Assembly (NCBI GenBank): GCA_963766765.1
Contig: CAVYBR010000006.1
Coordinates: forward strand, 1-34,772
From: an uncultured Actinomycetota bacterium
GTDB taxonomy: Bacteria; Actinomycetota; Actinomycetes; Mycobacteriales; Geodermatophilaceae
DNA: 34,772 nt
Reading direction: 5' to 3'
This document shows positions 1 through 34,772 of the stretch, piece by piece. Position numbers and translations under genes: made by a program. The stretch's first letter is position 1. Each line of letters opens with the position of its first letter. Below the pieces are notes generated by a model. It was not told the origin of the DNA, did no database searches, and saw only the letters and a list, made by a program, of their open reading frames with translations.

Positions 1-58
1 CCACCAGACCCACACCGCCTAGGAGTAGGCCGAACGTCGGATCATGAGAGCCAGCTGG

Positions 59-1150
59 CTAGCTGCCCGGCGCATCCCGCTCAGCATCCAGCACCGCCAT
101 CACGTCCACGACGGCTTCCCCCGCGGAATCGTCGTTGTCCGGTAAGGGACCCGACGAGCCGACCATCCATTCCTGGGGATCGATTCCGTACGACTCCGAC
201 AGCGTTCGGAGGCGGTAGACCGCCTGAGCGCGCCGGAAGGTCCGCTCGGTCAGGCTGGCACTGAGTGCTGCATTCAACCCGACGCCAACCAACGGCACCG
301 TCTGCGCCAGCTTCTTCTGCGTGAGTCGCAGGCCAAGGACCTGGTAGACCTTGCCGATAGCCCGAACGAGAAGGTGCTCGTTCAGCTGCTTCCAGGTCGC
401 TTGACGCATCATCTGCTGGGTCAAGCGCGACAGCGCCCCAAGAGCCTGTGTCTTTGCGCCCATGGAGCCCGCCACCCCGAGTGAAAGGACGCCCATCGCG
501 AAGAGTTCTTCGTCCGAGAGCCGGACATCGTATCCGTAGCGAGTAGCCACCGCACCGATGGTGCGCCCCATCATCGCCATCGATGCGACTGCGTCGGCGG
601 CCACCGCACCGATCGCCACGACTGCAGTCGTACCGGCAGTGACCGTGGTAGCCACCTCCGCTCCGGTGACAGCCAAGGCGGTTGCCGCCCCCTGGCCAGC
701 CGAGCCCAAGGTATAGCCGAACTTCGGCGGCAACATGGCGTCGCGATCCTCGAGCGGCAAGGCCCGGATCTGCTCATAGGTGCGCGTCTCGGGATGCTTC
801 CTGGCGTAGCGCTTCACGATCGAGGCCGGTCGCGTACTGCGAAGCGCAGGCTGGAAGGTCAGCGCAAGCGTTCCCTCGAACACTCTCTCCACGACATCCC
901 TCGCGGACTCCGCCCCGGGCAGGTCGCTGACCCTGCCTGCAACCCAGGACGCGGTCGATGAGACTCGTTCGCGGAGCTTCCTCGGAATGACCGCTTGGCG
1001 CGGCAATTCATGGAGCACACCCAGCGAATATCGCCAGGCCGCCTGCTCATACGGCGTCATCTCCTCGAAGCCCACAGTGGCTGCCCCTCCCCCTCCAGGC
1101 CCGACGAGATCCCGTCCCCCGAGCGCCGCCGAACAGGCTACACGGAACAC
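59..1150 (-). CDS. EcsC-family-like protein. It has a Gly/Ala-rich central region and a conserved IGxxATxYGYD...EELFxxGVLxLG block. The true start may be the internal Met at 1060, which has GAGGAG immediately upstream.
   Basis: 363-aa ORF with protein-like composition. The glycine/alanine-rich segment followed by the YGYD..L..EE..F..G block resembles EcsC (PF12787) proteins as I remember them. No alignment was run. Confidence 0.45.
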   Translation of the reverse strand: MFRVACSAALGGRDLVGPGGGGAATVGFEEMTPYEQAAWRYSLGVLHELPRQAVIPRKLRERVSSTASWVAGRVSDLPGAESARDVVERVFEGTLALTFQPALRSTRPASIVKRYARKHPETRTYEQIRALPLEDRDAMLPPKFGYTLGSAGQGAATALAVTGAEVATTVTAGTTAVVAIGAVAADAVASMAMMGRTIGAVATRYGYDVRLSDEELFAMGVLSLGVAGSMGAKTQALGALSRLTQQMMRQATWKQLNEHLLVRAIGKVYQVLGLRLTQKKLAQTVPLVGVGLNAALSASLTERTFRRAQAVYRLRTLSESYGIDPQEWMVGSSGPLPDNDDSAGEAVVDVMAVLDAERDAPGS

Positions 1151-1178
1151 TGCGATCGGCAGTCGGGAAAAGCGGGAG

Positions 1179-1212
1179 GCTAGCTGTGGTGTCCAGGGAC
1201 GCCACAGCTAGC
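1179..1212. promoter_or_regulatory. Perfect 11-bp inverted repeat GCTAGCTGTGG-N12-CCACAGCTAGC (a stem-loop or protein-binding palindrome) just upstream of the EcsC-like ORF.
   Basis: Read directly from the sequence at 1179-1189 and 1202-1212. No T-tract follows, so it is not a canonical intrinsic terminator. Confidence 0.4.
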
Positions 1213-1639
1213 TCGAAGCCATTGTTCCGGCGCTAGACCGCGGGTAGGTGGGAGCCGGCCCAGCGAGCGCGGGAGGAGCGAACCAACGGCCTAGTGGGCA
1301 TGGCGCGATCACCCTCCGCCCCCGTCAGCGCTGACCTGATGCGCACGCCGCAGACAGGGGTCGGGATCATCAAGCACTGGACTGCTGAGGTGCCTTCGAA
1401 GATGGTGTAGATCTCCTCGGTGCTCGCCAGAACAGCCCAGCCCGAAGCACCGATCCGTCCCTGACCTGCGGCTTTGCCACTCGGCATTTGCCGTCGGTTG
1501 CCACCGCTTGCCGACGTCCCACGGAACTGTCACGGAACACCGACCACCCTCGTTGCGACGATCATTCGAACCCAAGCTGCCTCCAGGCCGGCCCCAAAGC
1601 CAGCCCCGGCACCGACCGCAGCACCGACACCCACTACCG

Positions 1640-1895
1640 CGTGCTCCACGACATCTCAGACCCCGCCGGCAAACTCACCCGGCGCCGCGCCAGCCGCCTC
1701 CACCACATCCCCGTCGGCACCGAACACGCCCGAACCCCCGTCCTCAAACTCGTCGACGACCTCCACATCCCCATCATCAACGCCGCCACCGGCGAACTCC
1801 TCCGCGAGCTCACCCTCGACCCCACCCGCGACTACCAACCCCTCGGCAGACCCCCAGGCCCACCACCCAAAAACAGAAAACCGGACCCCCGATAA
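1640..1895 (+). pseudogene. C-terminal fragment of an IS481/Mu-type (rve plus Mu-transposase-C) transposase. The N-terminal HTH and DDE core are absent.
   Basis: Translation ...RLHHIPVGTEHARTPVLKLVDDLHIPIINAATGELLRELTLDPTRDYQPLGRPPG matches the characteristic C-terminal tail of actinobacterial IS481-family transposases, which end ...NAATGELLREL.LDPTRDYQP. The upstream portion of the ORF has no transposase features. Confidence 0.45.
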
Positions 1896-1933
1896 GGGGC
1901 CGGTCTGTCCGGTATCTCCTGAGAGATCACAAG

Positions 1934-2012
1934 AGCCGGTGAGGGGACTCGAACCCCTAACCCCCGCTTTACCAGACCATGCCTGTCGTCGTACCGCACC
2001 ACTACCCGAAAG
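1934..2012 (-). tRNA. tRNA-derived 3' fragment (T-arm plus acceptor 3' strand). The 5' half cannot be folded into an acceptor stem, so this is a partial or degenerate tRNA and a possible former integration (att) site.
   Basis: The minus strand reads ...AGGGGTTCGAGTCCCCTCACCGGCT. This is a canonical T-stem/T-loop (GGGG-TTCGAGT-CCCC) followed by a 7-nt acceptor strand and discriminator. No complementary 5' acceptor strand (GCCGGTG) is present upstream. Confidence 0.4.
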
Positions 2013-2026
2013 TTGCCGTTGACCTG

Positions 2027-2047
2027 CTCACTCTCCATTGGAGAGTA
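2027..2047. other. Perfect 7-bp stem-loop ACTCTCC-ATT-GGAGAGT at the edge of a locally AT-richer stretch (2040-2130).
   Basis: Palindrome read directly. It is adjacent to a lower-GC segment that could hold a promoter. Confidence 0.3.
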
Positions 2048-2520
2048 AGCAGCTGTTGGCGACTATGCTCGCTAAATTTCATTCAATCCGGTGAGTAAAA
2101 CGGTGAGTTGCGGTGGGCACGAAGCTGCTTTCGAGCGCAAGCTGGTCCGGAGCGGCACCGAAGATACCGAGCGCTGGAGTCTGGGTTGGTCCCATCTCAG
2201 CGATGATCGGCTTGTGGAACGTGACGCAGGGGGCCAAGTAGCTCACATTTGCCCAGCCACGGTTCAGGGTCGTGGTGAACAGACCGTGTCTGTCTTCGGC
2301 CTGGCCAACGCCACCGTGAACAGCCACTCAGGCGAGGTGATCGGGCGGCCAGGAGGTCGACTCCGATCTGGCCGACGATCCCTAGCGCCTGCATCGACCG
2401 TGAGGGTCGGGCCGGTCTACACGACCCGGTCCGGCATGAAGCACGGCAGCTTGGCGGCGGCTGGGCAGAACGCCGAAGCATCGGAGTCGATTTGATGCAC
2501 GGCGGATCGGGCAGCTTGCG

Positions 2521-3333
2521 TCAGCCGTCAGAGTGGGTGGTGCTGTAAGGGCCAAGGGTTGGCCAGTGGCTAACTCGGCCGGCCAGACGGGCCCGACGCG
2601 GCGTCATGGCGTCGTACGCGACGATCACCCGGTCACCCTTGGCGTAGGAAATACGGCTCCCGACCGGGAACCTGCGAGCGACCTCGTACGGTCCCTCACC
2701 CCGGCGGGTGTAGTACTCGACGGTGACCTCGGTGTACACCACCGGGGCACCGCTCTCCGATTCGCCGCGGATCGGACCTCGCACTCGGGTCACTCGTCCC
2801 GCGGTTTTCTCGTCCAGCTCGGACTTGCGGCGCAGACCGGCCAGGACTTCGGTGACGATGAAGCTCCCGACCACCATCACCAGGCCGAACCCACCGAGTA
2901 CGACGATCGTCAACATGTCGCTGTCGCTGGCGAGGTTGATTGCCGCCGGGATCAAGATGACCAGCCCGAGCCCGGACAGCGTCGCGATGACCAACATGAC
3001 AAGTACCCGGAGTGCACGCGGGGCGACTTTGGTGACTGCGCGGAGTGCGCGCGGGGTGACTTTGCTGAGTGCTCGGAGCGGATGTACACGGCGTCGCCTG
3101 GGGGGCGCGCTATCCGCGGGCGACGAGTCGTGGGTCTGCCCAGGTGGATCCAGCGACTGGCTGTCATCGCCGCGCGAATCCAGCTCACTCGACGCGCCAG
3201 CCTCGGCGATAGGCAGCTTTTGCAGGAAGTCTGATGAGGCGCCCAGCTCACCGAGGGTCGCGGCGAACTCGGCGGAAACCTTTGGATCGCGGGAAGGCGT
3301 CTGCTCGATGGCGCCGGTGGGTTCAGCGTCCAT
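2521..3333 (-). CDS. DUF3592-like membrane protein. It has a disordered N-terminal region, two TM helices and a C-terminal beta-rich domain. The probable start is the second Met, MDAEPTG.
   Basis: ORF 2521..3396 with TM segments (TPRALRVLVMLVIATLSGLGLVILIPAAINL and MLTIVVLGGFGLVMVVGSFIVTEVL) followed by the ...PVVYTEVTVEYYTRRGEGPYEV... domain. That architecture fits DUF3592. The assignment is from memory. Confidence 0.45.
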   Translation of the reverse strand: MDAEPTGAIEQTPSRDPKVSAEFAATLGELGASSDFLQKLPIAEAGASSELDSRGDDSQSLDPPGQTHDSSPADSAPPRRRRVHPLRALSKVTPRALRAVTKVAPRALRVLVMLVIATLSGLGLVILIPAAINLASDSDMLTIVVLGGFGLVMVVGSFIVTEVLAGLRRKSELDEKTAGRVTRVRGPIRGESESGAPVVYTEVTVEYYTRRGEGPYEVARRFPVGSRISYAKGDRVIVAYDAMTPRRARLAGRVSHWPTLGPYSTTHSDG

Positions 3334-4069
3334 GTTGCCTCCTCCATCCCTGCGGCGGTGAGCCAGCCTGCTCGATTGCGGCAGCAGCGCTATCAATTAT
3401 CGCCTGCATCTTGCTTGTCAACAGGTCGGTCCTGGTGATCTTTCCGCCGACTACCAGGCAGCCGCGGATTTGGTTGTTGGCAAAGGTGGGACGTGCGAGC
3501 ATGCCCTCGTGCGGGTCGGCGGTGCTCTGCAGTTGGGCCCAGCTGAGGTTGTACCGGTCAGCGGCGCTTCGTTGCTCCCACATTTCGGGGCCAGCTTTGG
3601 CGGCGGCGCGGTAGAAGGCCCCCCAGTTGATGGCCAGGCGATGCTCGGCCTGAAAGGCGGATCCGACGAAGCCGGTGCCGATTTTGATGGGCGGTTCGCC
3701 GTTGTCGAAGTCGGCGCCGGCCATCACCGCGCCGATCCGATGCAAGCGACGCCGGCGTCCGAGCCGGCGGTAGTAGCGCACTTCAACGGTGGGCCAGTCA
3801 GCACCGACGATGTCGTAGATCTGAACGACAACGGCGGACAAGGTGATGCGAACTTTTTGGTCGTATTTGCGGATGCGCTGGTCTTGCCGGGAGAGGCTGA
3901 TCTCGCCAGCCGCTTCGAGGACCGTGATCACGACGAGAAGGCCAACGGCAGTCCACTCCAGCGCTTCGTGGCGTTGCCACCACCCCTTCGGGAGGTTGAG
4001 CTGCGCGAGGGTGATGATCGCACCGGCTACCGCCACGAGGGTGGCTCGGAGTAGCCGCCACACAACCAT
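3323..4069 (-). CDS. Hypothetical protein with two N-terminal TM helices and a roughly 180-aa C-terminal soluble domain.
   Basis: 248-aa ORF co-oriented with the DUF3592-like gene and overlapping it by about 10 nt. The hydrophobic segments are VVWRLLRATLVAVAGAIITLAQL and ALEWTAVGLLVVITVLEAAG. I recognise no known domain. Confidence 0.45.
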   Translation of the reverse strand: MVVWRLLRATLVAVAGAIITLAQLNLPKGWWQRHEALEWTAVGLLVVITVLEAAGEISLSRQDQRIRKYDQKVRITLSAVVVQIYDIVGADWPTVEVRYYRRLGRRRRLHRIGAVMAGADFDNGEPPIKIGTGFVGSAFQAEHRLAINWGAFYRAAAKAGPEMWEQRSAADRYNLSWAQLQSTADPHEGMLARPTFANNQIRGCLVVGGKITRTDLLTSKMQAIIDSAAAAIEQAGSPPQGWRRQHGR

Positions 4070-4666
4070 GGGGAATTGTGGGCTGCTCCACCGTGATTAA
4101 TCCAGACCTGATGCGGTGGCACTTTGACGCCTCGGAGCCGACGCGCCGCGGCGGAGCTGCTTACTCGCGGCTGGGACGGAAGATTGCGCGACGGCTCCGT
4201 GCCGATGAATCGGGCTGGAGGCCGCCCTGGACGGTGTCGTCGGGGTGGATGCTCAGCGGCCAGACGCCATCGGGGCGTAGGCCGTGACTCGCACCGGCCG
4301 GCCGAGCGCGGGGGCGGTTTGGGCGATCCGTTTGCGAGCCTGCTCGCGCATGTCGGCCAGGTCCTGGCGAGTGAGCGGGTGCTCGGGACCGGTCGTCGTT
4401 CAGCGCGATGTCGATCCGCGGGAACGGCAGCGCCCGGCCCGGGTCGGCAGGAGTTGGGGAGGCGTGGTCATCGTGCCCCGGTGTCACTAGTCGGTCCAGA
4501 ACGGCGGTCGACCGGGTGAGCCCGTACACACCTTGGATCGTCGAGTGCATGCAAGAGGCTGGCCGCCGGCTGCCCGCTGTTCACGGCTGCTGCCGGGTCT
4601 GAGCTGGGTAACGCCCCACTACGTGCACGCCTTCGGTTGAGGGCTCACAGACGCGGCGCGTCCTGC

Positions 4667-5256
4667 TCAGCTCGGACAGCGGTTCGGCGCAGGCTTGCTC
4701 GTGGCTTCGCGCGCCGTCTGCTCAGCTGCGGGTGGGCCTTTCTTAGACGGCGTCGCCACCGGTGGTTTGCCGTCCTGGATCGGTGTGATGGGTGTGATGG
4801 TGATGTCGTAGTCCTCGGTGGCTTCGTCGACGACGGCGTCGTAATGCGCGGCGCGGCCGCGGGCGAGAACCTGGATCAGGTGCAGGCCCGGTGCTGCGGG
4901 TCTGTAGACGAGCGATGCTGGCCCGATGCCCTCCAAGGAGGCGAGATACAGGTCGTCCGCGATGAGGATTGCAGCTTGTTCTGCGACGTCCCACCCGTCC
5001 ACGCTGGCCGTAAGGTCCGGCAGTGGCTCGTGCCGATCCGGACGGTGACGTTGACCGGACCGCTGGCACCTGCCCTAGTCTGGCTGGCCGTTGGCCCGTC
5101 TGCCTGCCGGTCAGATGGCGCGACGACTGCCGCCGGCGTACCAGGAGTCGCGCTATCCGCTCCAAAGAGTATGGCGTTGCTCTCGTCTACGACGAAGCGC
5201 TCGAGGAGTTCGGCGCGGCTGGCCACCGAGGCGTATCGACCACACATGCCAGCCAC
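4667..5256 (-). pseudogene. SOS-response-associated peptidase (SRAP / YedK / DUF159) gene, frameshifted. The N-terminal MCGRY part and the central DGW part lie in different frames.
   Basis: ORF 4876..5256 begins MAGMCGRYASVASRAELLERF, with the catalytic Cys2 MCGRY hallmark. The 4667..5074 frame contains ...ASVDGWDVAEQAAILIADDLYLA..., which resembles the xADGWYEW core. The two parts are in different reading frames, and the 5' ORF runs on into junk sequence. Confidence 0.55.
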
Positions 5257-5627
5257 CCTGCCACGTCACACGGACAACAGCAGCGATGCCAGCGGAGCTA
5301 CCGGCCTCGAATGGGGTGCACCGCAAACGCCTGGCCAGCGAGGAAGCCGCGCACCTACCGTGATCGGGTGGTCGCCAGCCCGGCGGCCAGGAGGGTGCCG
5401 CCGGGGTCTGAGGCGAACGTCATCAGCCTACGTACGTCGACGGCGTTCACGATAGGGTCGGGCGCCGACCGCTCCGGCCGGTATGGCGCCGGACGGTGAT
5501 AACGGCGGCATCGCGATCCGGATCGCGCCGGGCGTGTCACGCGGTCTGAGCGGTGATCCGGGGCCGGTCCGGGGCGCCGGCGGGCGGGAGCCGGTGATAG
5601 TGGCAGTATCGACGGGACGGCCAAGAG

Positions 5628-5906
5628 TCAGTCCGGGAAATCGGGCTCGTCTCCCCAGGCCGCGGATCCGGCGCTGGGTGCGCTAGCGCTGCCCGCGCCG
5701 GCCGACTGCGCAAAGGGGCTGCTGATGCTGGCGCTGTCGGTGCTGCGATAGATCACCCGGTCACCGACGACCGTGCCCGCGTACTGTCCGTTGGGGTCGT
5801 ACACCTTGTCACCCTGGATCCGGCCCACGTGCGTCCCCGAGCGCGAGAACAGGTCGTTGCCGCTCCGCCGCAGGGGTCGGCCGTTCTTTGTGTAGAGATC
5901 TGCCAT
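5628..5906 (-). CDS. Small repeat protein resembling the 4-fold beta-flower family, with repeated G-x-x-V-G-x-I-x-G-D-x-V-Y-D units.
   Basis: 92-aa ORF MADLYTKNGRPL...GTHVGRIQGDKVYDPNGQYAGTVVGDRVIYRS... with internal repeats. The ATG is preceded by a purine-rich stretch. Confidence 0.45.
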   Translation of the reverse strand: MADLYTKNGRPLRRSGNDLFSRSGTHVGRIQGDKVYDPNGQYAGTVVGDRVIYRSTDSASISSPFAQSAGAGSASAPSAGSAAWGDEPDFPD

Positions 5907-5980
5907 CCCTCAATTGTGCGCTCGGTCGGCGACTCAGTAGAACGCTGTGGCTCCCGGTGCGTCGGGCTCGTGGTGTCTGC

Positions 5981-6580
5981 TCAACGTGCCTCCGGGGTGC
6001 GGCCTCCTGGGCCGCTCGCTGGGGAGTCCAGCAACGCGATTCGCTCGGCAGAGCTTCCCAGCTGGTCCGGCCGGCGCCGACGTCGGGAAGGATGCGGGTC
6101 GACGTCGAGTTCGATGCGAGCGACGTCGACCAGGTGGTGGCGTCGCTTGTTCATCAGCTGCACGAGACCCTCAAGTTGGTCAGGTGTCGTGTCGCCGGCA
6201 CCGATGGCGTTGCCCAGATCGACGATCACGTCGGCACAGAGGTCTGCCGCGTCGACGACCTCCTTGCTGCCGATGAACCGGATCACGGTCAGAGCCTCAC
6301 CGGCATCCCGGAGCGCAGTTTGGATCGGGACCGCCTGCTGCAGCACACGAATCGGCGCCAGGGAGGCCAGTAGCCGCGGCTTGCTGTTCTTCGAGACGAG
6401 CTCCTGCATCGCCAAGGCGACGTCGGAGAGTCGGGTCCACGCGGTCGTGTACGCGGCCAGCCGCTGCTGATGCCACTGTTTGCGATCACTGCGTTTCGAC
6501 TGCCGGCGATCACCGAGCCAGGCTGTCAGTGCGGTCAGCAGCGCACCGACTGCGACACCGATCAAGGACTCCACCCGCAC
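5981..6580 (-). CDS. Hypothetical protein with a single N-terminal TM anchor.
   Basis: 199-aa ORF. N-terminal hydrophobic helix LIGVAVGALLTALTAWL, then a mostly helical soluble part. No known domain. Confidence 0.4.
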   Translation of the reverse strand: MRVESLIGVAVGALLTALTAWLGDRRQSKRSDRKQWHQQRLAAYTTAWTRLSDVALAMQELVSKNSKPRLLASLAPIRVLQQAVPIQTALRDAGEALTVIRFIGSKEVVDAADLCADVIVDLGNAIGAGDTTPDQLEGLVQLMNKRRHHLVDVARIELDVDPHPSRRRRRPDQLGSSAERIALLDSPASGPGGRTPEAR

Positions 6581-7452
6581 AGGCTAGAGCTCCCCTCAGA
6601 CAGCACCGCAAGGATCGCCGCCCCGGACGAGTTCCTGCGCATGTGTCCGCGTTCTTCATCGACTTCGCCTCGTCCACCGGCGTAAGAACCACGGCTTGTC
6701 CCTGAGCACGAACAACTCTTCCCGTGCACCTCTCCCTCAGCACACGAGCGCGGTCGGCCGCTGTTCACCGGACGGCGTTCCGGGAGACGCGTTGGTGATC
6801 GTCGCCAGGCAGCGGGAACGGCAGCGAGTACCCCAACGCCTGCTGACACAACTACCGGGTGAGCACCACGGCCAGGTTCACGGACGTGACCAACTGACCG
6901 CCCTGCCAGAACTTCTCGGGAAACCCTCAGGACTTTGTGTGCGGCGCCTGCCACGATCCAGAAGTCGAGCGCCAGTCGGCGGCAATTGGCCGACGGTTTG
7001 AATTCCAGCCCATCCGGCTCGATGCGGGGTCGCGGGACTGCGCGAGCTCAGCGGGGTCGCGTACCTGCAGTTCGAGCACGCGGGGTCGGGCTGACATGCC
7101 TGCCCCGGTAGGGACACGGACAAGGTCCCACCACGGGCTGTCGCTCGACGCGACCTTAACCGTGCAGCCAGGGCAGGCTGCTGATCGAGCAGCGGGGAAA
7201 GGATTGCTTGTTCTACCAGAGCGCCCGGAAAAACTTGGGGCCAAGTTGTCACAGACCGCCCGATTTCTATGCCTTCTTCGGGCAGAGGGGTCAGGACGGT
7301 CCCGCCGCACCCAGGGTTATCCAGGCCCACGAACCACATCCGAAGCACCGCAGGAAAGAGCAGCTCACCCATGAACGTAGAACCACGACCGCTGGCAAGG
7401 CGCCGGGCGCCACACCACCAGGCCATCTATCTGTGCGGGTGGTCTACCGAGC

Positions 7453-7743
7453 TCAACGACGGGCCGCACTTCTGCCCGCACCGAATCTCTCGTGGACGGC
7501 CTGTTTGCTCACGCCGCCGAACTGCTCGCCGATCGCGGACCAGGACGCGCCGGCGGCTCGCGCTTCCGCGATGTACCGGGCGAGCTCGTCCTCCAGGAGG
7601 TCGAGAACCCACCGGGCTCCCGCGACGTTCTGCAGATGGTCGGGAGCTGGTGCGGCGCCGCTGTCACGTGCGATCGCCCGGCCGGCCTTGTCGATCGCGG
7701 TCCGGAGCTGCCTCTGGATTTCGCGGATCTCGCCGTCAAGCAT
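7453..7743 (-). CDS. Small helix-turn-helix DNA-binding protein.
   Basis: 96-aa ORF with the C-terminal ...AAGASWSAIGEQFGGVSKQAVHERFG... HTH signature common in actinobacterial regulators. Confidence 0.45.
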   Translation of the reverse strand: MLDGEIREIQRQLRTAIDKAGRAIARDSGAAPAPDHLQNVAGARWVLDLLEDELARYIAEARAAGASWSAIGEQFGGVSKQAVHERFGAGRSAARR

Positions 7744-7924
7744 TCCTTGACCCTACCGCGCAGGCGGTTTGTTGCAACAGACCATTTGCATTCCTGACCT
7801 GCGGCTTTGCAGTTGGAGAACCGGGGGTGCTTCTTCCTACCGTCTTGTACGTGGGACGTGCCAGCGCCCATCAACAAGGAACGGCTCCCTGTGCCAGCAG
7901 AGAGCCGTTCGGAAGCGCAACGCC

Positions 7925-8197
7925 ATGGGAGGCTGCAACTCAAGTGAAGAGTACGACGTGCCGGCGACGCCCGGCTATACAGGATCCCGCCACGCTCTGC
8001 CGGGTGTCGTCGTGTTGACCGTCGGGCTGATCGCGTTGGCGATCGTCGCCGCCCCGATGCTCCTGCTCGTCTTCGCGGTCCTGGTCGTCGCCGTACGGTC
8101 GCAGACGCTCGACGCTGCCGGCCGGAAGCATTCGCTGCAGCTCGTAGCGGAAATGACCCGCCTGGCGGGCGTTCTCATCTCGCGCCGGCGCCAGTAA
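7925..8197 (+). CDS. Small membrane protein of about 90 aa, taken from an internal Met of ORF 7769..8197.
   Basis: MGGCNSSEEYDV...GVVVLTVGLIALAIVAAPMLLLVFAVLVVAV... shows two hydrophobic helices. The start choice is uncertain. Confidence 0.3.
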   Translation: MGGCNSSEEYDVPATPGYTGSRHALPGVVVLTVGLIALAIVAAPMLLLVFAVLVVAVRSQTLDAAGRKHSLQLVAEMTRLAGVLISRRRQ

Positions 8198-8741
8198 CCA
8201 ACCGCAGTGCAAGACGGGTCCGTGCCTGGAGCCGATCGCCGTCCAGTCGGGGTGCCTTCAATAGTTGCGGAGGTGACCCCGATTCCCCACAGGGGAGGAG
8301 TTGACCCGTGACGCGACGCTGCCGATACCGGCCCGGCGAGCCAGATCCGTACGCCGCGGACCTGGTTCGTCGGATCCACGGGCTGATGGCACTCGTCGCC
8401 GGTCCGCCTGTCCGGGGACCGTGCGAGGTACGCCGCGAAGACGAACTGCTCCACCACGTCGGCCGACGGAACACCGTGCACCAGATCGCGGATCGGTGGG
8501 CGTACGCGGTCAACGTGATGCGCGCCGGCCGGAAGATCTACCACGTCGCGGGCCCGAGCTCGGCAAGCTTGGGCGTAGACGGGCAGGTTGGACTTTGATG
8601 CGCAACAACAGCCCCTCGGACCTTCGCAGCTGGGAGCAAGGATTTCGGGTTCGCCTTGTAGAAGGCCGGTCGAGCATCGAGCCTCGCGTCGGCTGCCACG
8701 GATGATCGGTCCCAGGACAGCACCGACGACTACCTCACGGT

Positions 8742-25340: not shown

Positions 25341-25449
25341 GCCTCGCCACCAAATGCGCCCGCCTACAGCCCTACCAACGACTACGCCCCTCGCACGCCA
25401 GCAGCTCCGGTTGACCGAGAACCGCAGGCGACGTCCGAACGGAGAAGAA

Positions 25450-26489: not shown

Positions 26490-26559
26490 GTCGTGGCATC
26501 AAGGCCGGTTTGGCCGTGCACGCATGTGCCAGTGAATTGAGGAAGGAAGGAAGTGCGAC

Positions 26560-27639
26560 ATGGCAACCGTCTCGTTCAAGGGAGCCACCCGGATCTACCC
26601 CGGTTCCGACACCCCCGCCGTCGACGGGCTGGATCTGGACATCGCCGACGGCGAATTCGTGGTCCTCGTCGGCCCGTCGGGGTGCGGCAAATCCACCTCG
26701 CTGCGGATGCTCGCCGGGCTCGAAGAGGTCAACGAGGGCAAGATCTACATCGGCGACCGCGATGTCACCGACTTTCCGCCGAAGGCGCGTGACATCGCGA
26801 TGGTGTTCCAGAACTACGCGCTCTACCCACACATGACGGTCGCCGACAACATGGGCTTTGCCCTCAAGATGCAGAGCCTGCCCAAGGACGAACGAGTCAA
26901 GCGCGTCACCGAGGCGGCCAAGCTGCTCGGCATCGAGGAGTACCTCGACCGCAAGCCGAAGGCACTGTCCGGTGGTCAACGCCAGCGCGTCGCGATGGGC
27001 CGCGCCATCGTCCGTAACCCGCAGGTCTTCCTGATGGACGAGCCGCTGTCCAACCTCGACGCCAAGCTCCGGGTCCAGACCCGCACGCAGATCGCCGAAC
27101 TGCAGCACCGGCTGGACGTCACCACCGTCTACGTCACCCACGACCAGATCGAGGCGATGACGATGGGCGATCGCGTCGCCGTTCTGAAGGACGGCCGGCT
27201 GCAGCAGGTCGACACGCCACTGGGCCTCTACGACCGGCCGAAGAACGTGTTCGTCGCAGGCTTCATGGGATCGCCGGCGATGAACCTCATCGAGGCCCGA
27301 ATCACCGACGGCGGCGCGAAGATCGGCGACTACGTCGTCCCGATCGAGCGCAGCCTGCTGGCCAAGGCCGACAACGACCAGACGCTGATACTGGGAATCC
27401 GGCCGGAGGCCTTCCACCTCGCGGACGAAGGGCTGCCCGTGAAGGTCGGGGTGATCGAGGAACTCGGCTCGGACGCGTTCCTCTACGGCACCGCGGCCCA
27501 CTCCACCCTCAACCAGCACATCATCGCGCGCATCGGCACCCGGCTGAACAGCGAGACGGGCGCCATCGTGCATCTCGCTGCGCAGCCCGACAAGCTGCAC
27601 CTCTTCTCGGCCTCGACCGGGCTGCGCCTCACGGCCTGA
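26560..27639 (+). CDS. msiK: Sugar ABC transporter ATP-binding protein (MalK/UgpC/MsiK type) with a C-terminal TOBE regulatory domain. Intact.
   Basis: 359-aa ORF with RBS GGAAGGAAGGAAG. It has Walker A GPSGCGKST, the signature LSGGQRQRVAMGRAI, Walker B VFLMDEPLSNLD and the H-loop VTHDQ. The gene symbol is my best guess from similarity to the actinomycete multiple-sugar-import ATPase. Confidence 0.85.
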   Translation: MATVSFKGATRIYPGSDTPAVDGLDLDIADGEFVVLVGPSGCGKSTSLRMLAGLEEVNEGKIYIGDRDVTDFPPKARDIAMVFQNYALYPHMTVADNMGFALKMQSLPKDERVKRVTEAAKLLGIEEYLDRKPKALSGGQRQRVAMGRAIVRNPQVFLMDEPLSNLDAKLRVQTRTQIAELQHRLDVTTVYVTHDQIEAMTMGDRVAVLKDGRLQQVDTPLGLYDRPKNVFVAGFMGSPAMNLIEARITDGGAKIGDYVVPIERSLLAKADNDQTLILGIRPEAFHLADEGLPVKVGVIEELGSDAFLYGTAAHSTLNQHIIARIGTRLNSETGAIVHLAAQPDKLHLFSASTGLRLTA

Positions 27640-28075
27640 GGCTTTCGTAGGCCTGGCCTTCGTGTTCCTGTCGTCCGTTCGCAGTCCGTTTCAGCCCCCA
27701 GAACCGACGCCAGACCAGCTCAGGTTCAGGTGGCAGCCTGCGGGCATCGACAGTTCGGGCGATCGTCTCTTCATGCTGGGCAGTCGCGAGGGCGATCGAG
27801 GCGTGCCGCGCGAGGATGTGCGCGACCGCTTCGTCATCCTCGCTGAACGCGCTGGGTTTGGGCTGCAGATCCGGGGAACGCCCGACGGTATCCTCCGCGG
27901 TGCTCAGTGGGACCTTCAGCACGCTGCGCAGGCCCGAGCGCCCGGGGATGGACTCAGGCGAGTGGTTCGCGGTCGGTCTTTGTAACGGAGGGTGCGGGTC
28001 AGCCGATAGAGCCAGCGTCGAGGCGGGATGGCGCCCACGGGCCAAGAGCTGGGGGGCATCGGGCCAGGGTGTCAT
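27629..28075 (-). CDS. Hypothetical protein. A weak GAF/ANTAR-like C-terminal helix is possible. Low confidence.
   Basis: 148-aa ORF overlapping the msiK stop by 11 nt. Composition is only moderately protein-like. Confidence 0.2.
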   Translation of the reverse strand: MTPWPDAPQLLARGRHPASTLALSADPHPPLQRPTANHSPESIPGRSGLRSVLKVPLSTAEDTVGRSPDLQPKPSAFSEDDEAVAHILARHASIALATAQHEETIARTVDARRLPPEPELVWRRFWGLKRTANGRQEHEGQAYESLRP

Positions 28076-28253
28076 CCCGCCTCCGTGATGGGTGCTCGGC
28101 GTTGAGCAGAGTCGCTATCGCGAGGCGGCCTCACCCACGTGCTCGGACAGCCGCTCCTCCAGCGTGCGGATCTGCAGGCAAACCTCCACGGCCCGCCCCA
28201 TGAAGCTGACGCGGACTCCTTTTGGAGGTCATCCGCCGCGGTCTTGTTGGGCG

Positions 28254-29288
28254 TCAGTCGCGGGGTCTGTCTTCGAGCTGTTCGCCGTGAGATTCGCAGG
28301 CGTGGCGCTCGGCCCGCGCGGCGAGGAGCTTGACGCCGGCCAGCGAGGCGATGACGGTGACGATCAGTACGCCGGCGATCACGCTCAAGGAGACGCCTGT
28401 GCTGATTTCGGCGACATGGAGGGGCTGCGCATCGTTGAGGAACGGGAGGTTGTTCTCGTGCAAGCGCGTGCAGGATGAGCTTGACTCCGATGAATCCGAG
28501 GATGGCTGCGAGGCCGTAGGACAGGTAGATGAGGCGGTCCAGTAGTCCGTCGATGAGGAAGTACAGCTGCCGCAGCCCCAGCAGGGAGAACGCGGTGGCG
28601 GTGAACACGATGAAGACGCTCTGGGTGAGGCCGAAGATCGCCGGGATGGAGTCCAGCGCGAACAGGACGTCGGTGCCGCCGATGGCCACCATGACCAGCA
28701 GCATCGGAGTCATCACCCGGCGGCCCTGGACGATGGTGAACAGCCTGTCGCGGTCGTAGGTTTCAGAGGTCCGCAGGAACCGCTTGGCGAGGCGGACGAT
28801 GACGTTGTTCGCCGATCGGCCGTTCGTCGTCCCGGGTTTGAGCATTTGGCCGGCGGTGACGAGCAGGATCAGTCCGAAGATGTAGAACACGAAGGCATAG
28901 GAGTTGACGAGCGCGGCGCCGAGGAAGATGAAAGCGGTGCGCGCGAGGAGAGAGAAGACGATGCCGAACAGCAGCGCCTTCTGCTGGTCGGCGCGCGGCA
29001 CTTTGAAGCTGGCCATGATGATGAGGAACACGAAGAGGTTGTCGACCGACAAGCGCCTTCTCCGTGAGGTAGCTCGGCGAAGTATTCGCTGCCCATTGCC
29101 GCGCCGCCCAGGAGCCAGACGCCGACGCCGAACAGGACGGCGATGCCCACGTAGATGGCTGACCAGATTGCTGCCTCGCGGAGCGTCGGGGTGTGTGCGG
29201 TGCGTACATGGAAGAAGAAGTCGAAGAGCAGCAGGGCAAGGATCCCGAGGATCGTCAGAGCCCAGACAAGTGGGGGAACATCCATCAA
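28254..29288 (-). pseudogene. TerC-family integral membrane protein gene with at least 3 frameshifts.
   Basis: TerC blocks occur in order across frames. They are MMDVPPLVWALTILGILALLLFDFFFHVRTAHTPTLREAAIWSAIYVGIAVLFGVGVWLLGG...EYFA, then YLTEKAL, then ...VDNLFVFLIIMASFKVPRADQQKALLFGIVFSLLARTAFIFLGAALV...DVLFALDSIPAIFGLTQSVFIVFTATAFSLLGLRQLYFLI...LSYGLAAILGFIGVKLILHAL, then HENNLPFLNDAQPLHVAEISTGVSLSVIAGVLIVTVIASL (ORF 28254..28463). Confidence 0.65.
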
Positions 29289-30708
29289 GCATCGGTCGCT
29301 GTCACGGCCGCCTCGTGGTGGTAGCGCGCCAGCTGTTCGGCGCTGACGCGTTTCAGCTCGGCTGCCGGGAACGGCGCCAGGAGTTGCCAGCCCACCTCGA
29401 GGGTGTCGGTCAGAGTACGGCGGGCTGGTCCTTGGTCGAGGTAGGTGCGTTCGAAGGCGGCGGCGAAGGCCAGGTAGCGGCGGTCCTCTGTGGGCAGTCC
29501 GCTCTCGCCGACGATCGACATCAGCCGGCGGACCTCGCGGCCGCGGGCGTAGCAGGCGTACAGCTGGTCGGCCAGGCCGCGGTGGTCGTCGCGGGTCTTG
29601 CCGGCGCCGATGCCTGCATTCATCAGCCGCGACAGTGACGGCAGTACGTCGATCGGTGGCTGGATGCCTTGCCGGTCGAGTTCACGCGACAGCACGATCT
29701 GGCCTTCGGTGATGTAGCCGGTGAGGTCCGGGATCGGGTGGGTGATGTCGTCGTCGGGCATGGTGAGGATCATCAGTTGGGTCAGCGATCCGGTGCCGCC
29801 GCGGACTCGGCCGGCCCGTTCGTACAGCGAGGCCAGGTCGGTGTACATGTAGCCGGGGTAGCCGCGGCGGCCCGGCATCTCCTCCCGGGCGGCGGAGATC
29901 TCGCGCAGCGCTTCGCAGTAGGCGGTCATGTCGGTCATCACGACCAGGACGTGCCGGTGCTGTTCGAAGGCCAGGTATTCGGCCATGGTGAGCGCGACCC
30001 GCGGTGTCAGCAGCCGTTCGATGGTGGGGTCGTCGGCCAGGTTCAGCAGCAGGACGCTGCGCGCGGCGGCGCCACCGGTCGAGGAACTCGGTGCGGAAGA
30101 ACTCCGCCTCCCGGCGGGTGACGCCCATGGCGGCGAAGATGACCACGACCTCGGCGTCGTCGCCGGGCACGCGTGCCTGCGCGGCGATCCGGGCGGCGAG
30201 GCTGTTCGCGGGCAGCCCGGCGCCGGAGAAGATCGGCAGCTTCTGGCCCCGGACGAGCGTGATGAGTCCGTCGATCGCCGAGACACCGGTTTCGATGAAC
30301 TGGTCGGGGTGGGCGCGGGTGATCGGGTTGAGCGGCAGGCCGTTGACGTGGCGGTAGTCGTCCGGGACGGGTTGCGGGCCGCCGTCGCGTGGCCTGCCGG
30401 CTCCGTCGAGGACGCGGCCGAAGTAGTCGGTGCCGACGCCGGTCCTGGCGGCGCGGCCACGGGTGAGTACGGAGGTTTCGCGGCGACCGATGCCGACGGT
30501 TCCACCGAAGACCTGGACGATCGCCAGTCGACCCGTCGAGCTCGAGCACCTGGCCTTCCCGGACCGGCCCGTCGCCGGTTTCGACCTCGACCAGTTCGCC
30601 GTACCCGACGCCGTCCATCCCGTCCACGATGATGAGCGGCCCGGCGACCCGGGTCACGGTGCGGTGCCCGACGGTGAAGGGCGGCTTGGGAGCTTCGGTG
30701 GTGGTCAC
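29285..30708 (-). pseudogene. atpB: A/V-type ATP synthase subunit B with at least 3 frameshifts.
   Basis: The GTG start overlaps the subunit A stop (GTGA). The N-terminal [60 protein letters not shown] is in ORF 30043..30810. ...[26 protein letters not shown]... is in ORF 29682..30170. ...[83 protein letters not shown]...[38 protein letters not shown]... is in ORF 29285..30505. Confidence 0.75.
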
Positions 30709-32508
30709 AGCGAGCTCATTTCTTCGGCGATCCGCTGGGTCAGGCGGCGTGGCGGAGTCGTCGACGTTGTCGGGGGGCCAGCGGCGCATCCGGCCGAGTT
30801 CGGCCAGCACGCTCGCGGCGGTGATGTCGGTGATGGCGACGCCGCGCTGGAGCGCCGACGCTCATCGCGGCGCCGGCCTCGTGGACGACGCGCAGCATGG
30901 CCAGCAGCCGTGGTGGTGGACAGGACGCGTCGAGGTCGTCGAACGAGGACTGTTGAAGCAGGTCTTCTCGCAGGGCTTGCCCGATGCGCAGGGTGATCCG
31001 TTGTTCGGCGGCCAGCGCTTCGACGCCGAGCAGGGACACCACTTCCTGCAGGGCGCCTTCGTCTTGCAGGGCTGCCGCCGCCCAGCGGCGCAGCGGCGAC
31101 CAGTCCGGGCCGATCTCCCGGTCGAACCATGCGTCCAGGCCGTACTGCGAGAAGCTGCGCAGCCAGTTCACCGCAGGGAAGTGACGCTGCCGGGACAGGG
31201 CGGTGTCGAGCGCCCAGAAGCAGCCCGCGAGCCGCAGGCTGTTCTGGGTGATGGGCTCGGAGAAGTCACCGCCGGCCGGTGAGACGGCGCCGACGATCGT
31301 CACCGACCCGGTGCGTTCCGGCGTGCCGAGGCATTGGACCGCGCCGGCCCGTTCGTAGAAGCCGGCCAGACGGGTGGCCAGGTAGGCGGGGTAGCCGTCC
31401 TCGGCGGGCATCTCCTCCAGCCGGCTCGACACCTCGCGCAGGGCCTCGCCCCAGCGGCTGGTCGAGTCGGCCATCATGGCGACGTCGTAGCCCTGGTCGC
31501 GGTAGTACTCCGCGATCGTGATCCCGCTGTAGATGCTGGCCTCGCGGGCCGCGACCGGCATGTTGGACGTGTTCGCGATCAGCACGGTGCGTTCCATCAG
31601 CGGGGCGCCGGTGCGCGGATCGGTCAGCTGAGGGAACTCCTCGAGCACCTCGGTCAGTTCGTTGCCGCGCTCGCCGCAGCCGACGTAGACGACGATGTCG
31701 GCGGTCGAGAACTTCGCCAGGGCCTGTTCCAGCACGGTCTTGCCGGTCCCGAAACCGCCCGGGATGATGGCGCTGCCGCCGCGGGCGACCGGGAAGAGCA
31801 GGTCGAGGACCCGCTGGCCGGTGACCAGCGGCACGGTGAGCGGCAGCCGGCTCGCGACCGGGCGAGCGCGGCGTAGCGGCCAGCGACGCATCATCGTCAC
31901 CGGGTGCCCGTCGATGTCGACGACAGGATCGAGGACGGTGGCCGGTCCGGGGCGGACCGCGGTGACGACGCCGGCCTGATCCGGCCGGCACCAGGATCCG
32001 GTGCTCGATGGCGCGTCCCTCCGGAACCGATCCGAGCAGGTCGCCGGGTCCGACCCGGTCCCCGACCTCGACGGCGGGCCGGAAGTCCCACCGGCGGTCG
32101 CGGTCGAGCCGCGGCGGGTCGGCACCCTCTGGCGATGTACAGGTTGCCGTCCGTGCTCAGGTTCTCCAGCGGTCGCTGGGTGCCGTCGAGGATGCCGCCG
32201 AGCAGCCCGGGGCCGAGCTCGGCGTACAGCGGTTCGCCGGTCGCCTCGACCGGTTCGCCGACCCGCAGTCCGGTGGTGTCTTCGAAGACCTGCATCACCA
32301 CCAGGTCGCCGTCGATCTTGATGACCTCACCCAGGAGCCGTTCGGCGCCGACCCGCACCACGTCGAACAGGCGGGTGTGGGGCAGGTCGGTGGCGCTGAC
32401 CACCGGGCCCGGAGATCTTGACCACCCGGCCGGTGTCGGTCGGTCACCTGCCTGGCCGGTCCGGCGTCCCCGGCTGGCTGGCTCGGTGCGTGGTCTGGTC
32501 GTGGTCAT
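30705..32508 (-). pseudogene. atpA: A/V-type ATP synthase catalytic subunit A, with multiple frameshifts.
   Basis: ATG at 32508 preceded by GGAGG. N-terminal ...[82 protein letters not shown] is in ORF 31897..32508. The core [69 protein letters not shown]...[68 protein letters not shown]...[26 protein letters not shown]... is in ORF 30740..32125. The C-terminal ...[12 protein letters not shown] is in ORF 30705..31130. Confidence 0.75.
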
Positions 32509-32848
32509 GGCGTGCCTCCGCTGGGGGTGAAGGTGATCTGGTAGCCGATCGCGCGGGCCAGCAGGTCACGCAGCGCGGCGTCTCGGCCGCGGAGACGTCG
32601 CCGTCCTCGTCGGGGAGGCTGAGGATGAGCGGGGTGGTCTGCCTGGTCCAGGTCGCGCGGACCTGCGGTGGGACGAGCGGACCAGAGGGCCCCGTGGACG
32701 GCGATGACCGCGGCCTGGCCGTCCGCGATCGCTGTGGTCGACTGCGGCGACGGTCTCGTCCGCGTCGACGGCGGTGACGGTCCGTGCGCCGCCGAGGCGG
32801 AAGCCCGATGGCGGTCGCGGGGGTGGCGACGACGAGTGCGTCGGTCAT
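32505..32848 (-). pseudogene. A/V-type ATPase subunit F, frameshifted.
   Basis: ATG at 32848 preceded by AGGAAGG. N-terminal MTDALVVATPATAIG resembles the subunit F start (M.IAVIGD.DT..GF). The C-terminal ...LRDLLARAIGYQITFTPSGG ends 3 nt before the subunit A start. Confidence 0.4.
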
Positions 32849-32877
32849 GGCTGGTCCTTCCTGGCCGGCGTCCGTGC

Positions 32878-33895
32878 TCATCGCGACGAGCAGGTCTCGT
32901 GACGTCGTGAGCCGGGAGCGGTGCCGGCGAGCAGGAGCCGGACGGTGCGCGCCTCGCACTCGGCGGCGAGGACGTAGCCGACCGGCACGTCGGCGCCGAG
33001 GGGGTCGCCGCGGCGCAGCCCGCGCACCGCTTGGCGCCACAGCGCCGACGTCCAGGTCCCATTCGAGCGCGGCGAGGTCTCCGTCGCGGAGGTGCCGTTC
33101 GAGGGCTGCTCGCCAGCTGGGGCGCGCGGCCACGAGCGGGCTGCGGATCGCCGCGCCGGGCGGCCAGCAACGCCGGCTCGGGTGACCAGCCCGGCGGGGA
33201 GCAGCCGCGGCGTCTCCAGCGCCGGGTCGCGCAGTACGGCGAGCAGGTTGGCCCGGTCGCACTCGGCCTGGACCAGCTCCAGGACCGGGCGGGCGGCCCG
33301 GCCGACCCGTTCCAGCCGGTCGGTCCAGCCGTCGATGGCGGCCGCCGCGACCGTGGTCTCGAACTCGTCCGGGTCGCCGTTCAGCTCATACCGTTCCCAG
33401 GCCGCCGGCAGCGCCCGGGCGGTCAGCGGGTCCGGGAGCCGGTGGGCCGCCAGCCGCAGGACAGCCGTCGCGCCGTCAGGCGCTGCGGCGATGTCGGCGG
33501 CGGCTCGCTGGTCGAGCGCACCGACACCCATCACCGCGGCGAGCCGGTCCGGCGCCGGCTGCCCGGTGCGTGCGCCGCGCAGCAGCGCAAGCGTGTCGTG
33601 CAGGTCGTGCCGGGCCAGCAGTACCCCGACCACGGTGCCGGCGATGCCGCCGTACAGTCCCCGCACTCCGCGCAGCAGGTCGCGCAGCCGGCGCCCGACC
33701 GCGTCGAGGAGCCGGTCGTCGTCCGCCTGGTCGCGGTTCAGGTAGGGGCGGTAGGTCGACGACGCGCGAGCCGTTCGGCGGCCGCGCTCGCGGGAGAGTC
33801 CGGCGAGCTGGTCGTAGTCGACAGGGCCGAGCAGGGCGGGCAGCCGCGCGCGCAGCCGGGTGTTGCCGGCGATGAAGTCGGGCGCGGGGCGTCAT
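32878..33895 (-). pseudogene. A/V-type ATPase subunit C (d-type, about 339 aa) with a frameshift immediately after the start codon and another near the C-terminus.
   Basis: The ATG overlaps the subunit E stop (ATGA). A +1 frame gives ...DFIAGNTRLRARLPALLGPVDYDQLAGLSRE...TYRPYLNRDQADDDRLLDAVGRRLRDLLRGVRGLYGGIAGTVVGVLLARHDL..., continuing into ORF 32878..33666. Size and position between E and F fit subunit C. Confidence 0.45.
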
Positions 33896-34458
33896 GAGTC
33901 CTGATCCCAGGAACGGCTCAGTTCGGCGCGGATCTCCGGCCAGATGTTCGCCAGCCGGGTGAGGTAGGTGTTGTCGACGTAGCGGCCTTGGTCGTCCTCG
34001 GCGATGGCGCCGCCGTGTTCGAGGTCGGCGACGATCTGGACCGTGGCTTCGGGCCTCAGCGTCGCGGCGTCGGCTGGGTGAACGTGGACTGTCGTGGCCT
34101 GCGGCAGCGCCGTGACAGCTTCGGCCAGGCAGGCGGCTGCCATTGCCGGGCCGTCCGGGCTGCCGGGCAGCGGCGAGCAGTTGCTCGCGTACCTGTGTCG
34201 AGGACCTCCTCCAGCGCGTCGTCGCGCGCGGTCCGGACGGCCCGACGGGCACTTGAACCGCGCGGTGATCAGCAGATTCTCCGCCTCCTGCCGGGCTGCG
34301 GTTTCGGCCGCTGTCACGACGTCGGCGTGGATCTTCGCTGCCCGTTCGTGCGCCTCGGCGAGAAGCTGAGCTGCCTGCCGGCGCCTGTCCTGCTGGGCCT
34401 TCTCGTGCTCGGCTGCTCCTTCTTCCTCCAGTGCGGTGAGCAGATCGCGCAGCGCCAT
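33892..34458 (-). CDS. A/V-type ATPase subunit E. The central segment is possibly corrupted by compensating frameshifts.
   Basis: 188-aa ORF. N-terminal helical MALRDLLTALEEEGAAEHEKAQQDRRRQAAQLLAEAHERAAKIHADVV... and C-terminal ...HGGAIAEDDQGRYVDNTYLTRLANIWPEIRAELS fit subunit E. Residues about 70-115 are junk-like. Confidence 0.5.
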   Translation of the reverse strand: MALRDLLTALEEEGAAEHEKAQQDRRRQAAQLLAEAHERAAKIHADVVTAAETAARQEAENLLITARFKCPSGRPDRARRRAGGGPRHRYASNCSPLPGSPDGPAMAAACLAEAVTALPQATTVHVHPADAATLRPEATVQIVADLEHGGAIAEDDQGRYVDNTYLTRLANIWPEIRAELSRSWDQDS

Positions 34459-34772
34459 CAGTTGCCGCCGAGCAGCAGGATGATCATCGCCGCGACCGCG
34501 AACCCGAGGATGACCAGTGTCTCCGGGATGGCGACGAGCAGGATCGCGCGGCCGGTCAGTTCTGGCTTCTCCGCTACCGCGCCCATGGCTGCGGCGCCGA
34601 TGCGCGCCTGGGCGTAGCCGGCGGTCTCGACGTTGGCGTAGCGGTCCTGGGCGTCGCGGAGCGTGGGACCGCTTGCCGAACAGGGCGTCGGCCTCGTCGA
34701 AGAGGGGCAGGACGCCGTTAGCCGCTGGGCCTCGGCGAAGATCCTGTCGAGGTTCTTCTCGGTCTCACCCAC
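34458..34772 (-). pseudogene. A/V-type ATPase proteolipid subunit K (c-ring), 3' part. It is frameshifted and the 5' end lies beyond the window.
   Basis: C-terminal ...GYAQARIGAAAMGAVAEKPELTGRAILLVAIPETLVILGFAVAAMIILLLGGN is a typical proteolipid helix pair. The N-terminal part of the ORF is out of frame. The stop overlaps the subunit E start. Confidence 0.55.

Follow-up and report, generated by a model that had tools for sequence, protein, structure and literature searches.

Reference-based correctors such as Kastor deal with gene-fragmenting insertions and deletions (indels) in the long-read assemblies of small genomes, and the errors that dominate nanopore and HiFi assemblies are of the homopolymer type and rich in deletions (PMC12007338). 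Two other described situations bear comparison. When haplotypes, strains or repeats are collapsed into one consensus, the resulting errors are confined to positions at which two similar templates differ, and DNA unique to one template stays clean. Reductive pseudogenes of the Mycobacterium leprae type are marked by many interrupted conserved genes, together with insertions of insertion sequences (IS) and gene remnants in the same region. Here we analyze a 34,772-nt stretch of DNA from an uncultured Actinomycetota bacterium (contig CAVYBR010000006.1 of assembly GCA_963766765.1, hereafter the window), in which about 13 conserved genes, most of those of a V-ATPase operon among them, are broken by frameshifts. 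We consider it probable, at roughly 0.78, that mixed templates gave rise to these frameshifts during assembly or consensus calling, and that they are not mutations of the organism; the affected genes are to be read as intact, not decaying. The lesions share with long-read indel errors that they are single-base, private to the assembly and gene-breaking, that they are found via close relatives and that their removal restores open reading frames (ORFs), but they differ in being non-homopolymer insertions that stand beside polymorphic sites, whose alternative allele they repeat. The resemblance to M. leprae-type pseudogenes extends to the interrupted genes, the IS insertion and the gene remnants, but not to relaxed selection, deletion bias or larger deletions, all of which are absent here, and there are almost no nonsense codons. 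The closest match is with collapsed consensus sequences, from which the window differs in that its second template is deduced from the alleles of other species.

The comparison is based on eight relatives with about 83–92% nucleotide identity to the window: four Kribbella genomes, namely Kribbella sp. VKM Ac-2569 (locus L001, the nearest relative), K. steppae (L002), Kribbella sp. VKM Ac-2571 (L161) and K. soli (L162), and four soil-metagenome contigs (L081, L082, L083 and L119). From 15187 to 33549 the window is collinear with VKM Ac-2569 at 87–92% nucleotide identity, the collinearity being broken by a 1.2-kb element (22519–23721) to which nothing corresponds when the window is aligned with L001 and L002. 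The gene order in the relatives is ctaD, tal, a gene for a protein with four transmembrane segments (4-TM), a PucR-type regulator, Usp, aceE, a short-chain dehydrogenase/reductase (SDR) epimerase, a DoxX-like gene, SPFH, msiK, TerC and the V-ATPase subunits B, A, F, C and E. The protein encoded by the aceE core is 97% identical to that of VKM Ac-2569 and 93% identical to that of K. steppae. No closer source of the DNA was recovered: for aceE nothing above 97% amino acid identity was found (best 97% in a scan of GTDB genomes and 96.6% among the members of the 90% cluster), the best metagenome match of the frame-corrected atpA was 95% identical, and exact look-ups of the msiK and the IS630 transposase of the window gave no match. 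The GC content of the window ranges from 62 to 75%, no tRNA gene or Rfam family was detected in it, and a literature search on Kribbella and frameshifts returned nothing relevant. Frame segments were obtained by aligning the intact VKM Ac-2569 proteins to the window with tblastn, and frame switches were called separately with a codon-usage Viterbi procedure trained on the genes of the relatives. Indels were taken from a seven-sequence alignment that extends from TerC to atpE (the window and six relatives) and from an alignment of 15187–22518 with four genomes.

The VKM Ac-2569 proteins align to the window in successive frames, so that conserved blocks can be traced from one frame to the next, as the initial annotation had described, and the same switch points were recovered independently by the Viterbi procedure. 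That annotation had placed frameshifts across the whole window; this is borne out for 15.1–34.7 kb, but not for 1–15 kb, where six long ORFs are intact. The comparison with close genomes that it had proposed reveals that the lesions are private. In VKM Ac-2569 every gene is one uninterrupted ORF, in K. steppae and the four soil contigs the genes are single-frame by tblastn, and the NCBI gene calls are all intact in K. soli and, except for a fragmented SDR, in VKM Ac-2571. The TerC–atpE alignment contains 26 window-private 1-bp insertions and about four small private deletions, as against about four private 1–3-bp indels in the six relatives combined, plus four larger deletions in L081. With 16 further window-private 1-bp insertions in 15187–22518 and three more in 23722–27639, the total comes to about 45 insertions, all counted ones of 1 bp, versus about 10 deletions of 1–4 bp (p = 2e-6), four of which make up two local −2/−1 pairs. 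Larger deletions inside the genes are absent from the window. When the private insertions are dropped, the four genes that were tested (atpA, atpB, TerC and tal) all yield stop-free translations; the corrected tal has no internal stop over its aligned part, its last ~21 codons lying outside the best alignment. Among the genes tested in their correct frame, a single stop is left after frame correction, the TAG codon at 24073–24075 in the SDR gene.

The sequence context of the inserted bases is equally distinctive. The initial annotation had suggested that the indels, if erroneous, might sit in homopolymer runs, and had advised checking for this; among 40 inserted bases, 28 are singletons, 10 lie in runs of two, two in runs of three and none in runs of four or more. 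Only 12 of the 40 (30%) extend a run, compared with 44–46% under random placement, and the composition is close to even (G13, C10, T9, A8). A homopolymer origin of the insertions is ruled out by these run-length counts, and the avoidance of homopolymers therefore excludes both replication slippage and homopolymer-type read errors. Assembly indel errors, one of the two readings originally offered, thus find support in their general form, given the private single-base insertions and the allele copies described below, but not in their homopolymer form. No shared motif, slippery sequence or run was found at the insertion sites. Insertion density is patchy (variance/mean 1.7–2.6, p = 0.006 to 0.0005): there are two insertion-free stretches of 2.3–2.5 kb each, and a hotspot at 32222–33549, in atpF and atpC, accommodates 11 private insertions in 1.3 kb, three of them within 30 nt. 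The hotspot is the part of the operon with the highest GC content (0.75) and the greatest divergence. A GC-dependent failure of polishing was considered and rejected (Spearman rho 0.17, p = 0.54; GC at insertions 0.695 versus a background of 0.686).

The position and identity of the inserted bases provide the most specific evidence. Since the polymorphism available for comparison consists of other species' alleles, it serves as a proxy for the second template. An alignment column that varies among the relatives adjoins 36 of the 45 insertions (null 0.41, range 0.35–0.42; binomial p = 1e-7), and 23 of the 45 inserted bases match the alternative allele that the relatives show at the adjacent column (null 0.14, range 0.12–0.15; p = 4e-9). 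The null distributions were generated by removing the private insertions, placing random bases at random positions and re-aligning with MAFFT, in 49 replicates. With five genomes in 15.2–22.5 kb, the fraction of allele matches rises to 12 of 16 while the null expectation is still 0.14. The pattern is visible at individual sites of the raw alignments: at 30081 the window reads C and then G (CT-C-GACC) where VKM Ac-2569 has C and five relatives have G; at 28464 it has C followed by T, the relatives having either C or T; and at 30859 it has C followed by G, the relatives having either C or G. The two proportions together argue that the insertions do not derive from a mutational process, which cannot know the alleles of other strains. 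They point to an artefact of consensus building or collapse of mixed templates more than to the chemistry of the reads.

Coding constraint on the branch leading to the window is intact. Substitutions were polarized with K. steppae, and those private to the window and those private to VKM Ac-2569 were counted in the same codons. The ratio of nonsynonymous to synonymous changes (N/S) is 68/146 for the window and 129/289 for VKM Ac-2569 (Fisher p = 0.86), and the distributions over codon positions 1, 2 and 3 are 41/27/146 and 79/54/285, respectively, so that 68% of the private changes of the window fall in third positions. Pairwise ratios of nonsynonymous to synonymous substitution rates (dN/dS) relative to VKM Ac-2569 are 0.12, 0.10 and 0.18 for the shifted genes tal, PucR and TerC, as against 0.09 and 0.12 for the clean genes aceE and msiK. 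Private substitutions are not in excess in the genes rich in insertions, the ratio of window to VKM Ac-2569 changes being ~0.45–0.5 in atpA, PucR, atpC and aceE. Relaxed purifying selection on the lineage of the window was thus looked for and not found in these comparisons. Genuine pseudogenization is unsupported because genes with four to six frameshifts lack the nonsynonymous load that long drift should leave. The massive pseudogenization that the initial annotation had entertained is at odds both with this purifying selection, which equals that on the nearest relative, and with the restoration of the four tested genes upon removal of the inserted bases. In several genes the net shift is zero modulo 3; the idea that this restoration of frame is itself a sign of selection was considered and set aside because the segments between shifts are long and still show the codon structure proper to the original frame, and because a stop occurs in one of them.

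A consensus drawn from mixed templates could produce insertions of this kind. Two or more templates with slight differences would underlie the sequence of 15.1–34.7 kb, whether these were close strains occurring together in a mixed or metagenomic sample or non-identical repeat copies that had collapsed. At some of the single-nucleotide differences between them, both alleles would have been written in tandem instead of one being chosen, and every such double-allele site would add exactly one base and thereby shift the frame. DNA represented by a single template, presumably most of the 1–15 kb segment and the IS630 copy, would stay clean, and so would stretches in which the templates agree, such as the aceE core and msiK. 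A two-template consensus would account for the bias toward single-base insertions, the avoidance of homopolymers (the two alleles necessarily differ from each other), the lack of extra substitutions, the intact constraint, the patchiness and the clean ORFs on the left. As far as the clean DNA is concerned, six long ORFs in 1–15 kb and the IS630 copy are free of insertions, the remainder of 1–15 kb being without relatives for comparison, and the shared genes aceE and msiK are clean too.

Several observations weigh against this explanation. The second template was never seen directly but is deduced from what other species carry, and for about half of the insertions none of the sampled relatives has a matching allele. 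The genes aceE and msiK diverge between species as tal and TerC do, yet they are clean, which calls for the extra assumption that the templates would be identical there or that one of them would be dominant. Four single-base deletions (18164, 25573, 32583 and 33767) are not covered by the keeping of both alleles. The codon phase of the insertions is only weakly skewed to third positions (34 of 44, versus an expected 2/3; p = 0.3), which is not significant. Finally, IS elements often occur in several copies, and yet the IS630 copy is clean.

One alternative is very recent pseudogenization of accessory genes (a tal copy, V-ATPase, TerC, PucR and Usp) in a lineage under relaxed selection, with aceE, msiK and the genes of the left segment kept intact by selection. 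The division between genes that are hit and genes that are spared can be read as one between accessory and needed functions, and some true decay is present in the window: IS630 in the tail of aceE, the remnants of ctaD and SRAP, and the nonsense codon of the SDR gene, where N exceeds S. Bacterial mutation produces indels and substitutions in a ratio of roughly 1:10, so that some 45 indels imply several hundred neutral substitutions, but only 214 private ones are seen, 68% of them in third positions, and constraint on the branch is not relaxed. Indels in bacterial pseudogenes are deletion-biased, the opposite of the excess of insertions over deletions of about 4.5 to 1 found here; larger in-gene deletions are missing, only one nonsense codon is present, and natural mutation has no means of knowing the alleles of other strains. 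We regard this alternative as very improbable. That the frameshifts are real but are decoded by programmed ribosomal frameshifting, transcriptional slippage or RNA editing, leaving the genes functional, would agree with the constraint that still acts on the original frames, but no motif, slippery sequence or homopolymer is common to the sites, 13 genes with up to six or more sites each would be involved, and nothing similar occurs in any of the eight relatives. We know of no bacterial precedent for recoding at this scale, and of all the readings considered it is the one to which we give least credence.

The extra bases could also be real scars of recombination between strains, in which an enzyme such as the actinobacterial mismatch endonuclease NucS/EndoMS cut heteroduplex mismatches and the ends were joined with fill-in, leaving both alleles in tandem. 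If this were true, the window would preserve the trace of a recent recombination tract by which about 13 genes were wrecked; we consider this version far-fetched, if slightly less so than recoding. More serious, but still unlikely, is the possibility that the insertions are residual errors of a generic kind, from noisy single-molecule reads that are prone to insertions, at low coverage or unpolished, with no mixed templates involved. The lesions are indeed 1-bp and insertion-dominated, with near-uniform base composition and no excess of substitutions; uneven depth or partial polishing could generate a patchy density, and long-read assemblies are known to suffer from indels that fragment genes (PMC12007338). 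The usual long-read errors, however, are homopolymer-linked and deletion-rich (PMC12007338), unlike those found here. The error ratios published for PacBio continuous long reads are inconsistent with one another. Errors placed at random would be expected beside a polymorphic site in ~40% of cases and to copy an allele in ~13%, whereas the observed values are 80% and 51%, and six long open ORFs in 1–15 kb are improbable at a uniform rate (P = 4e-7).

Along the window, the lesions are distributed as follows. The transaldolase gene tal (15131–16298, minus strand) has private single-base insertions at 15347, 15795, 15940 and 16227 and is split into five tblastn frame segments. The adjacent 4-TM gene (16358–17110, minus strand), the ortholog of L001 6471–7223, has insertions at 16689, 16804 and 17057 and aligns in four segments in frames −2, −3, −1 and −2, the K. 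steppae ortholog being in a single frame; its paralog at 13954–14679 is open, which agrees with the earlier observation that one of the two 4-TM genes is hit. In the PucR-type regulator (17415–18650, minus strand), an insertion at 17980 and a single-base deletion at 18164 are separated by 184 nt, and the shifted stretch between them contains a stop at 18063–18065. The tandem Usp gene (18865–19825, plus strand) has insertions at 18937, 18952, 19015 and 19797, the last of which deletes the stop and creates an in-frame fusion with aceE, so that Pfam detects both Usp and pyruvate dehydrogenase (PDH) E1 domains in the ORF 19027–22563. The gene for PDH E1 itself, aceE (19822–22519, plus strand), has a single-base insertion at 22270, its residues 1–817 aligning in frame 1 before a change to frame 2; its core is clean except for a compensated −2/−1 pair at 20375/20407. 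The two deletions of this pair are 32 nt apart, and those of a similar pair in the SDR gene (24515/24528) are 13 nt apart; each pair removes one codon net and recodes a few residues. These pairs are distinct from the class of single-base insertions and may be natural compensated changes.

The SPFH/Band 7 gene (25380–26489, plus strand) has an insertion at 25421 and a single-base deletion at 25573, aligns in two segments and reads in the window as a single ORF with the upstream DoxX-like gene (24960–25390). It is followed by the msiK-type ABC ATPase gene (26560–27639, plus strand), which has no indels relative to VKM Ac-2569. TerC (28254–29288, minus strand), with insertions at 28283, 28464, 29053 and 29074 and a 4-base deletion at 28265, aligns in three segments. 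The V-ATPase genes follow, all on the minus strand. Subunit B (atpB, 29285–30676) has insertions at 30081 and 30526–30529 and three segments; subunit A (atpA, 30705–32455) has six insertions (30748, 30859, 31977, 32124–32127, 32408–32410 and 32441) and six segments; and subunit F (atpF, 32514–32881), with insertions at 32680, 32738 and 32803 and a single-base deletion at 32583, occupies two frames. Subunit C (AC39, atpC, 32881–33891) carries insertions at 32884, 32900, 32913, 33042, 33135, 33183, 33786 and 33884 and a single-base deletion at 33767; its ORF is open yet scrambled internally, giving 76% amino acid identity in one high-scoring segment pair. Subunit E (atpE, 33898–34461) has three insertions (34171, 34196 and 34251), after which the frame is restored. 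The atpC and atpE ORFs stay open because single-base insertions in groups of three restore the frame, with identity reduced to 72–76%. The part of subunit K that was compared (atpK, 34464–34619) is clean, its 52 residues being 100% identical to those of soil contig L083. In K. steppae, the V-ATPase operon (L002 17682–22304, corresponding to window 29974–34624) is inverted relative to the aceE segment, and neither msiK nor TerC separates the two, a rearrangement among closely related species.

Frame changes in tal, PucR, Usp, the 3' end of aceE, SDR, SPFH and TerC, all listed in the initial annotation, are thus evident from tblastn or the indel alignments, and the aceE core (its compensated pair apart), msiK, the IS630 transposase and the HEPN-like ORF discussed below are clean, as had been stated. 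Two of its other statements require revision: lesions are not limited to one to four per gene, since counts reach six or more, and of the six V-ATPase genes said to be hit, B, A, F, C and E are, but atpK is not over the 52 residues compared.

The IS630-family element (22520–23703, plus strand) is an ordinary genuine insertion, unrelated to the frameshift artefact. Like other members of the IS630/Tc1-mariner family, and with nothing unusual about it, it encodes a DDE_3 transposase with N-terminal helix-turn-helix (HTH) domains (Pfam HTH_32, HTH_28 and HTH_29), intact at 22607–23695, and it is bounded by terminal inverted repeats that match at 22–23 of 26 positions and by a TA duplication (22518–19 and 23704–05). 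It sits 18 codons before the stop of aceE and splits off these last 18 codons. The SDR epimerase gene (23799–24741, plus strand), directly downstream, has an insertion at 23886, the in-frame TAG codon and the compensated pair already mentioned, and two tblastn segments. On the branch of the window it has accumulated more nonsynonymous (15) than synonymous (13) changes, and its ortholog in VKM Ac-2571 (L161 12775–13315) is called as three fragments. The TAG codon, the excess of N over S and the fragmented ortholog make it possible that the SDR gene, which lies downstream of the IS630 insertion, is truly a pseudogene.

The left part of the window (1–14896) is a segment of lower GC content and lower GC content at third codon positions (GC3), foreign-looking and absent from the loci of the relatives; tblastx of 1–14.9 kb against all the relatives' loci compared gave noise only. 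Plasmid and phage searches with 1–15.2 kb matched nothing but the ctaD remnant, and Pfam searches with 20 ORFs of the left half gave almost no matches. The ORFs that are open here comprise an EcsC-like ORF (59–1150), two ORFs in 2524–4096, the HEPN-like ORF (8742–10247), an ORF with transmembrane and coiled-coil segments (10615–11601) and the 4-TM paralog; these six long ORFs, ~6.1 kb together, are intact, and the chance of zero insertions in them at the average rate is 4e-7. The segment ends at a 3' remnant of ctaD, which encodes cytochrome oxidase subunit I (14897–15106, plus strand) and marks the left edge of the part shared with the relatives. Only the last ~200 nt of ctaD are left, with an internal gap of ~285 nt, while in K. 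soli and VKM Ac-2569 a full ctaD of 597 amino acids adjoins tal. The ctaD edge and the 15 kb to its left could represent an island, a rearrangement or a chimeric join.

The only proven patch of frame changes in the left 15 kb lies in a remnant of an IS1380-family (PF13701) transposase (11840–12180, minus strand), with changes in the same direction near 12059, 12006, 11950 and 11903, about 50 nt apart. When the frames are joined into one peptide, it matches the database protein P0136 with 78% identity over 96% of its own length, compared with 37–40% for single frames; Pfam searches with the X-masked frames found no match. Such a patch fits collapsed non-identical copies because IS1380-type elements are typically multi-copy. 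A short same-strand run of Viterbi frame switches (-fa/-fb/-fa) at 4215–4448 (minus strand) is a second candidate. The SRAP gene, which had been listed among the frameshifted ones, is not of this type: a SRAP-like start is recognizable over ~25 codons from 5247 (~5170–5247, minus strand; MCGRYASVASRAELLERF...), and beyond these first ~25 codons no SRAP motif was found in any frame, which identifies it, as judged from the sequence, as an N-terminal remnant.

Other ORFs of the left segment are of interest in their own right. The ORF 2524–3336 (minus strand) has a single database homolog, P0001 (320 amino acids, from a Logan assembly), with 70% identity over the C-terminal part, and appears to belong to a very rare membrane-protein family. 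The possibility that the ORFs 3326–4096 and 2524–3396 form one frameshifted gene was rejected, as this sole homolog covers the second ORF alone, in a single frame. The HEPN-like ORF (8742–10247, plus strand, 501 amino acids) has no Pfam match and contains in its C-terminal part a possible R-x4-H motif (RSQIVH) of the HEPN-domain type; located beside the ORF with transmembrane and coiled-coil segments, it could be a defence gene. A short coding stretch at 1581–1847 (plus strand), also without a Pfam match, ends in ...TGELLRELTLDPTRDYQP, an end that resembles the C-terminus of actinomycete integrase-type transposases.

The main value of these observations is in quality control. Gene calls, pseudogene counts and fusions in 15–35 kb are distorted, which bears out the warning in the initial annotation that gene calls here must be read with care: examples are the Usp–aceE and DoxX–SPFH fusions and the atpC, atpE, TerC and 4-TM ORFs that are open but scrambled, and the same distortion probably occurs elsewhere in the assembly. 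In high-GC DNA, an open ORF is no guarantee of correctness. A private single-base insertion beside a polymorphic site, copying the alternative allele, provides a signature that depends on reference genomes and needs no reads, and that tells mixed-template artefacts apart from true pseudogenes as well as from read errors of the homopolymer type. The finding is therefore a correct and useful quality flag and not a biological feature, and any claim of genome decay or of a symbiotic lifestyle built on this sequence would be wrong.

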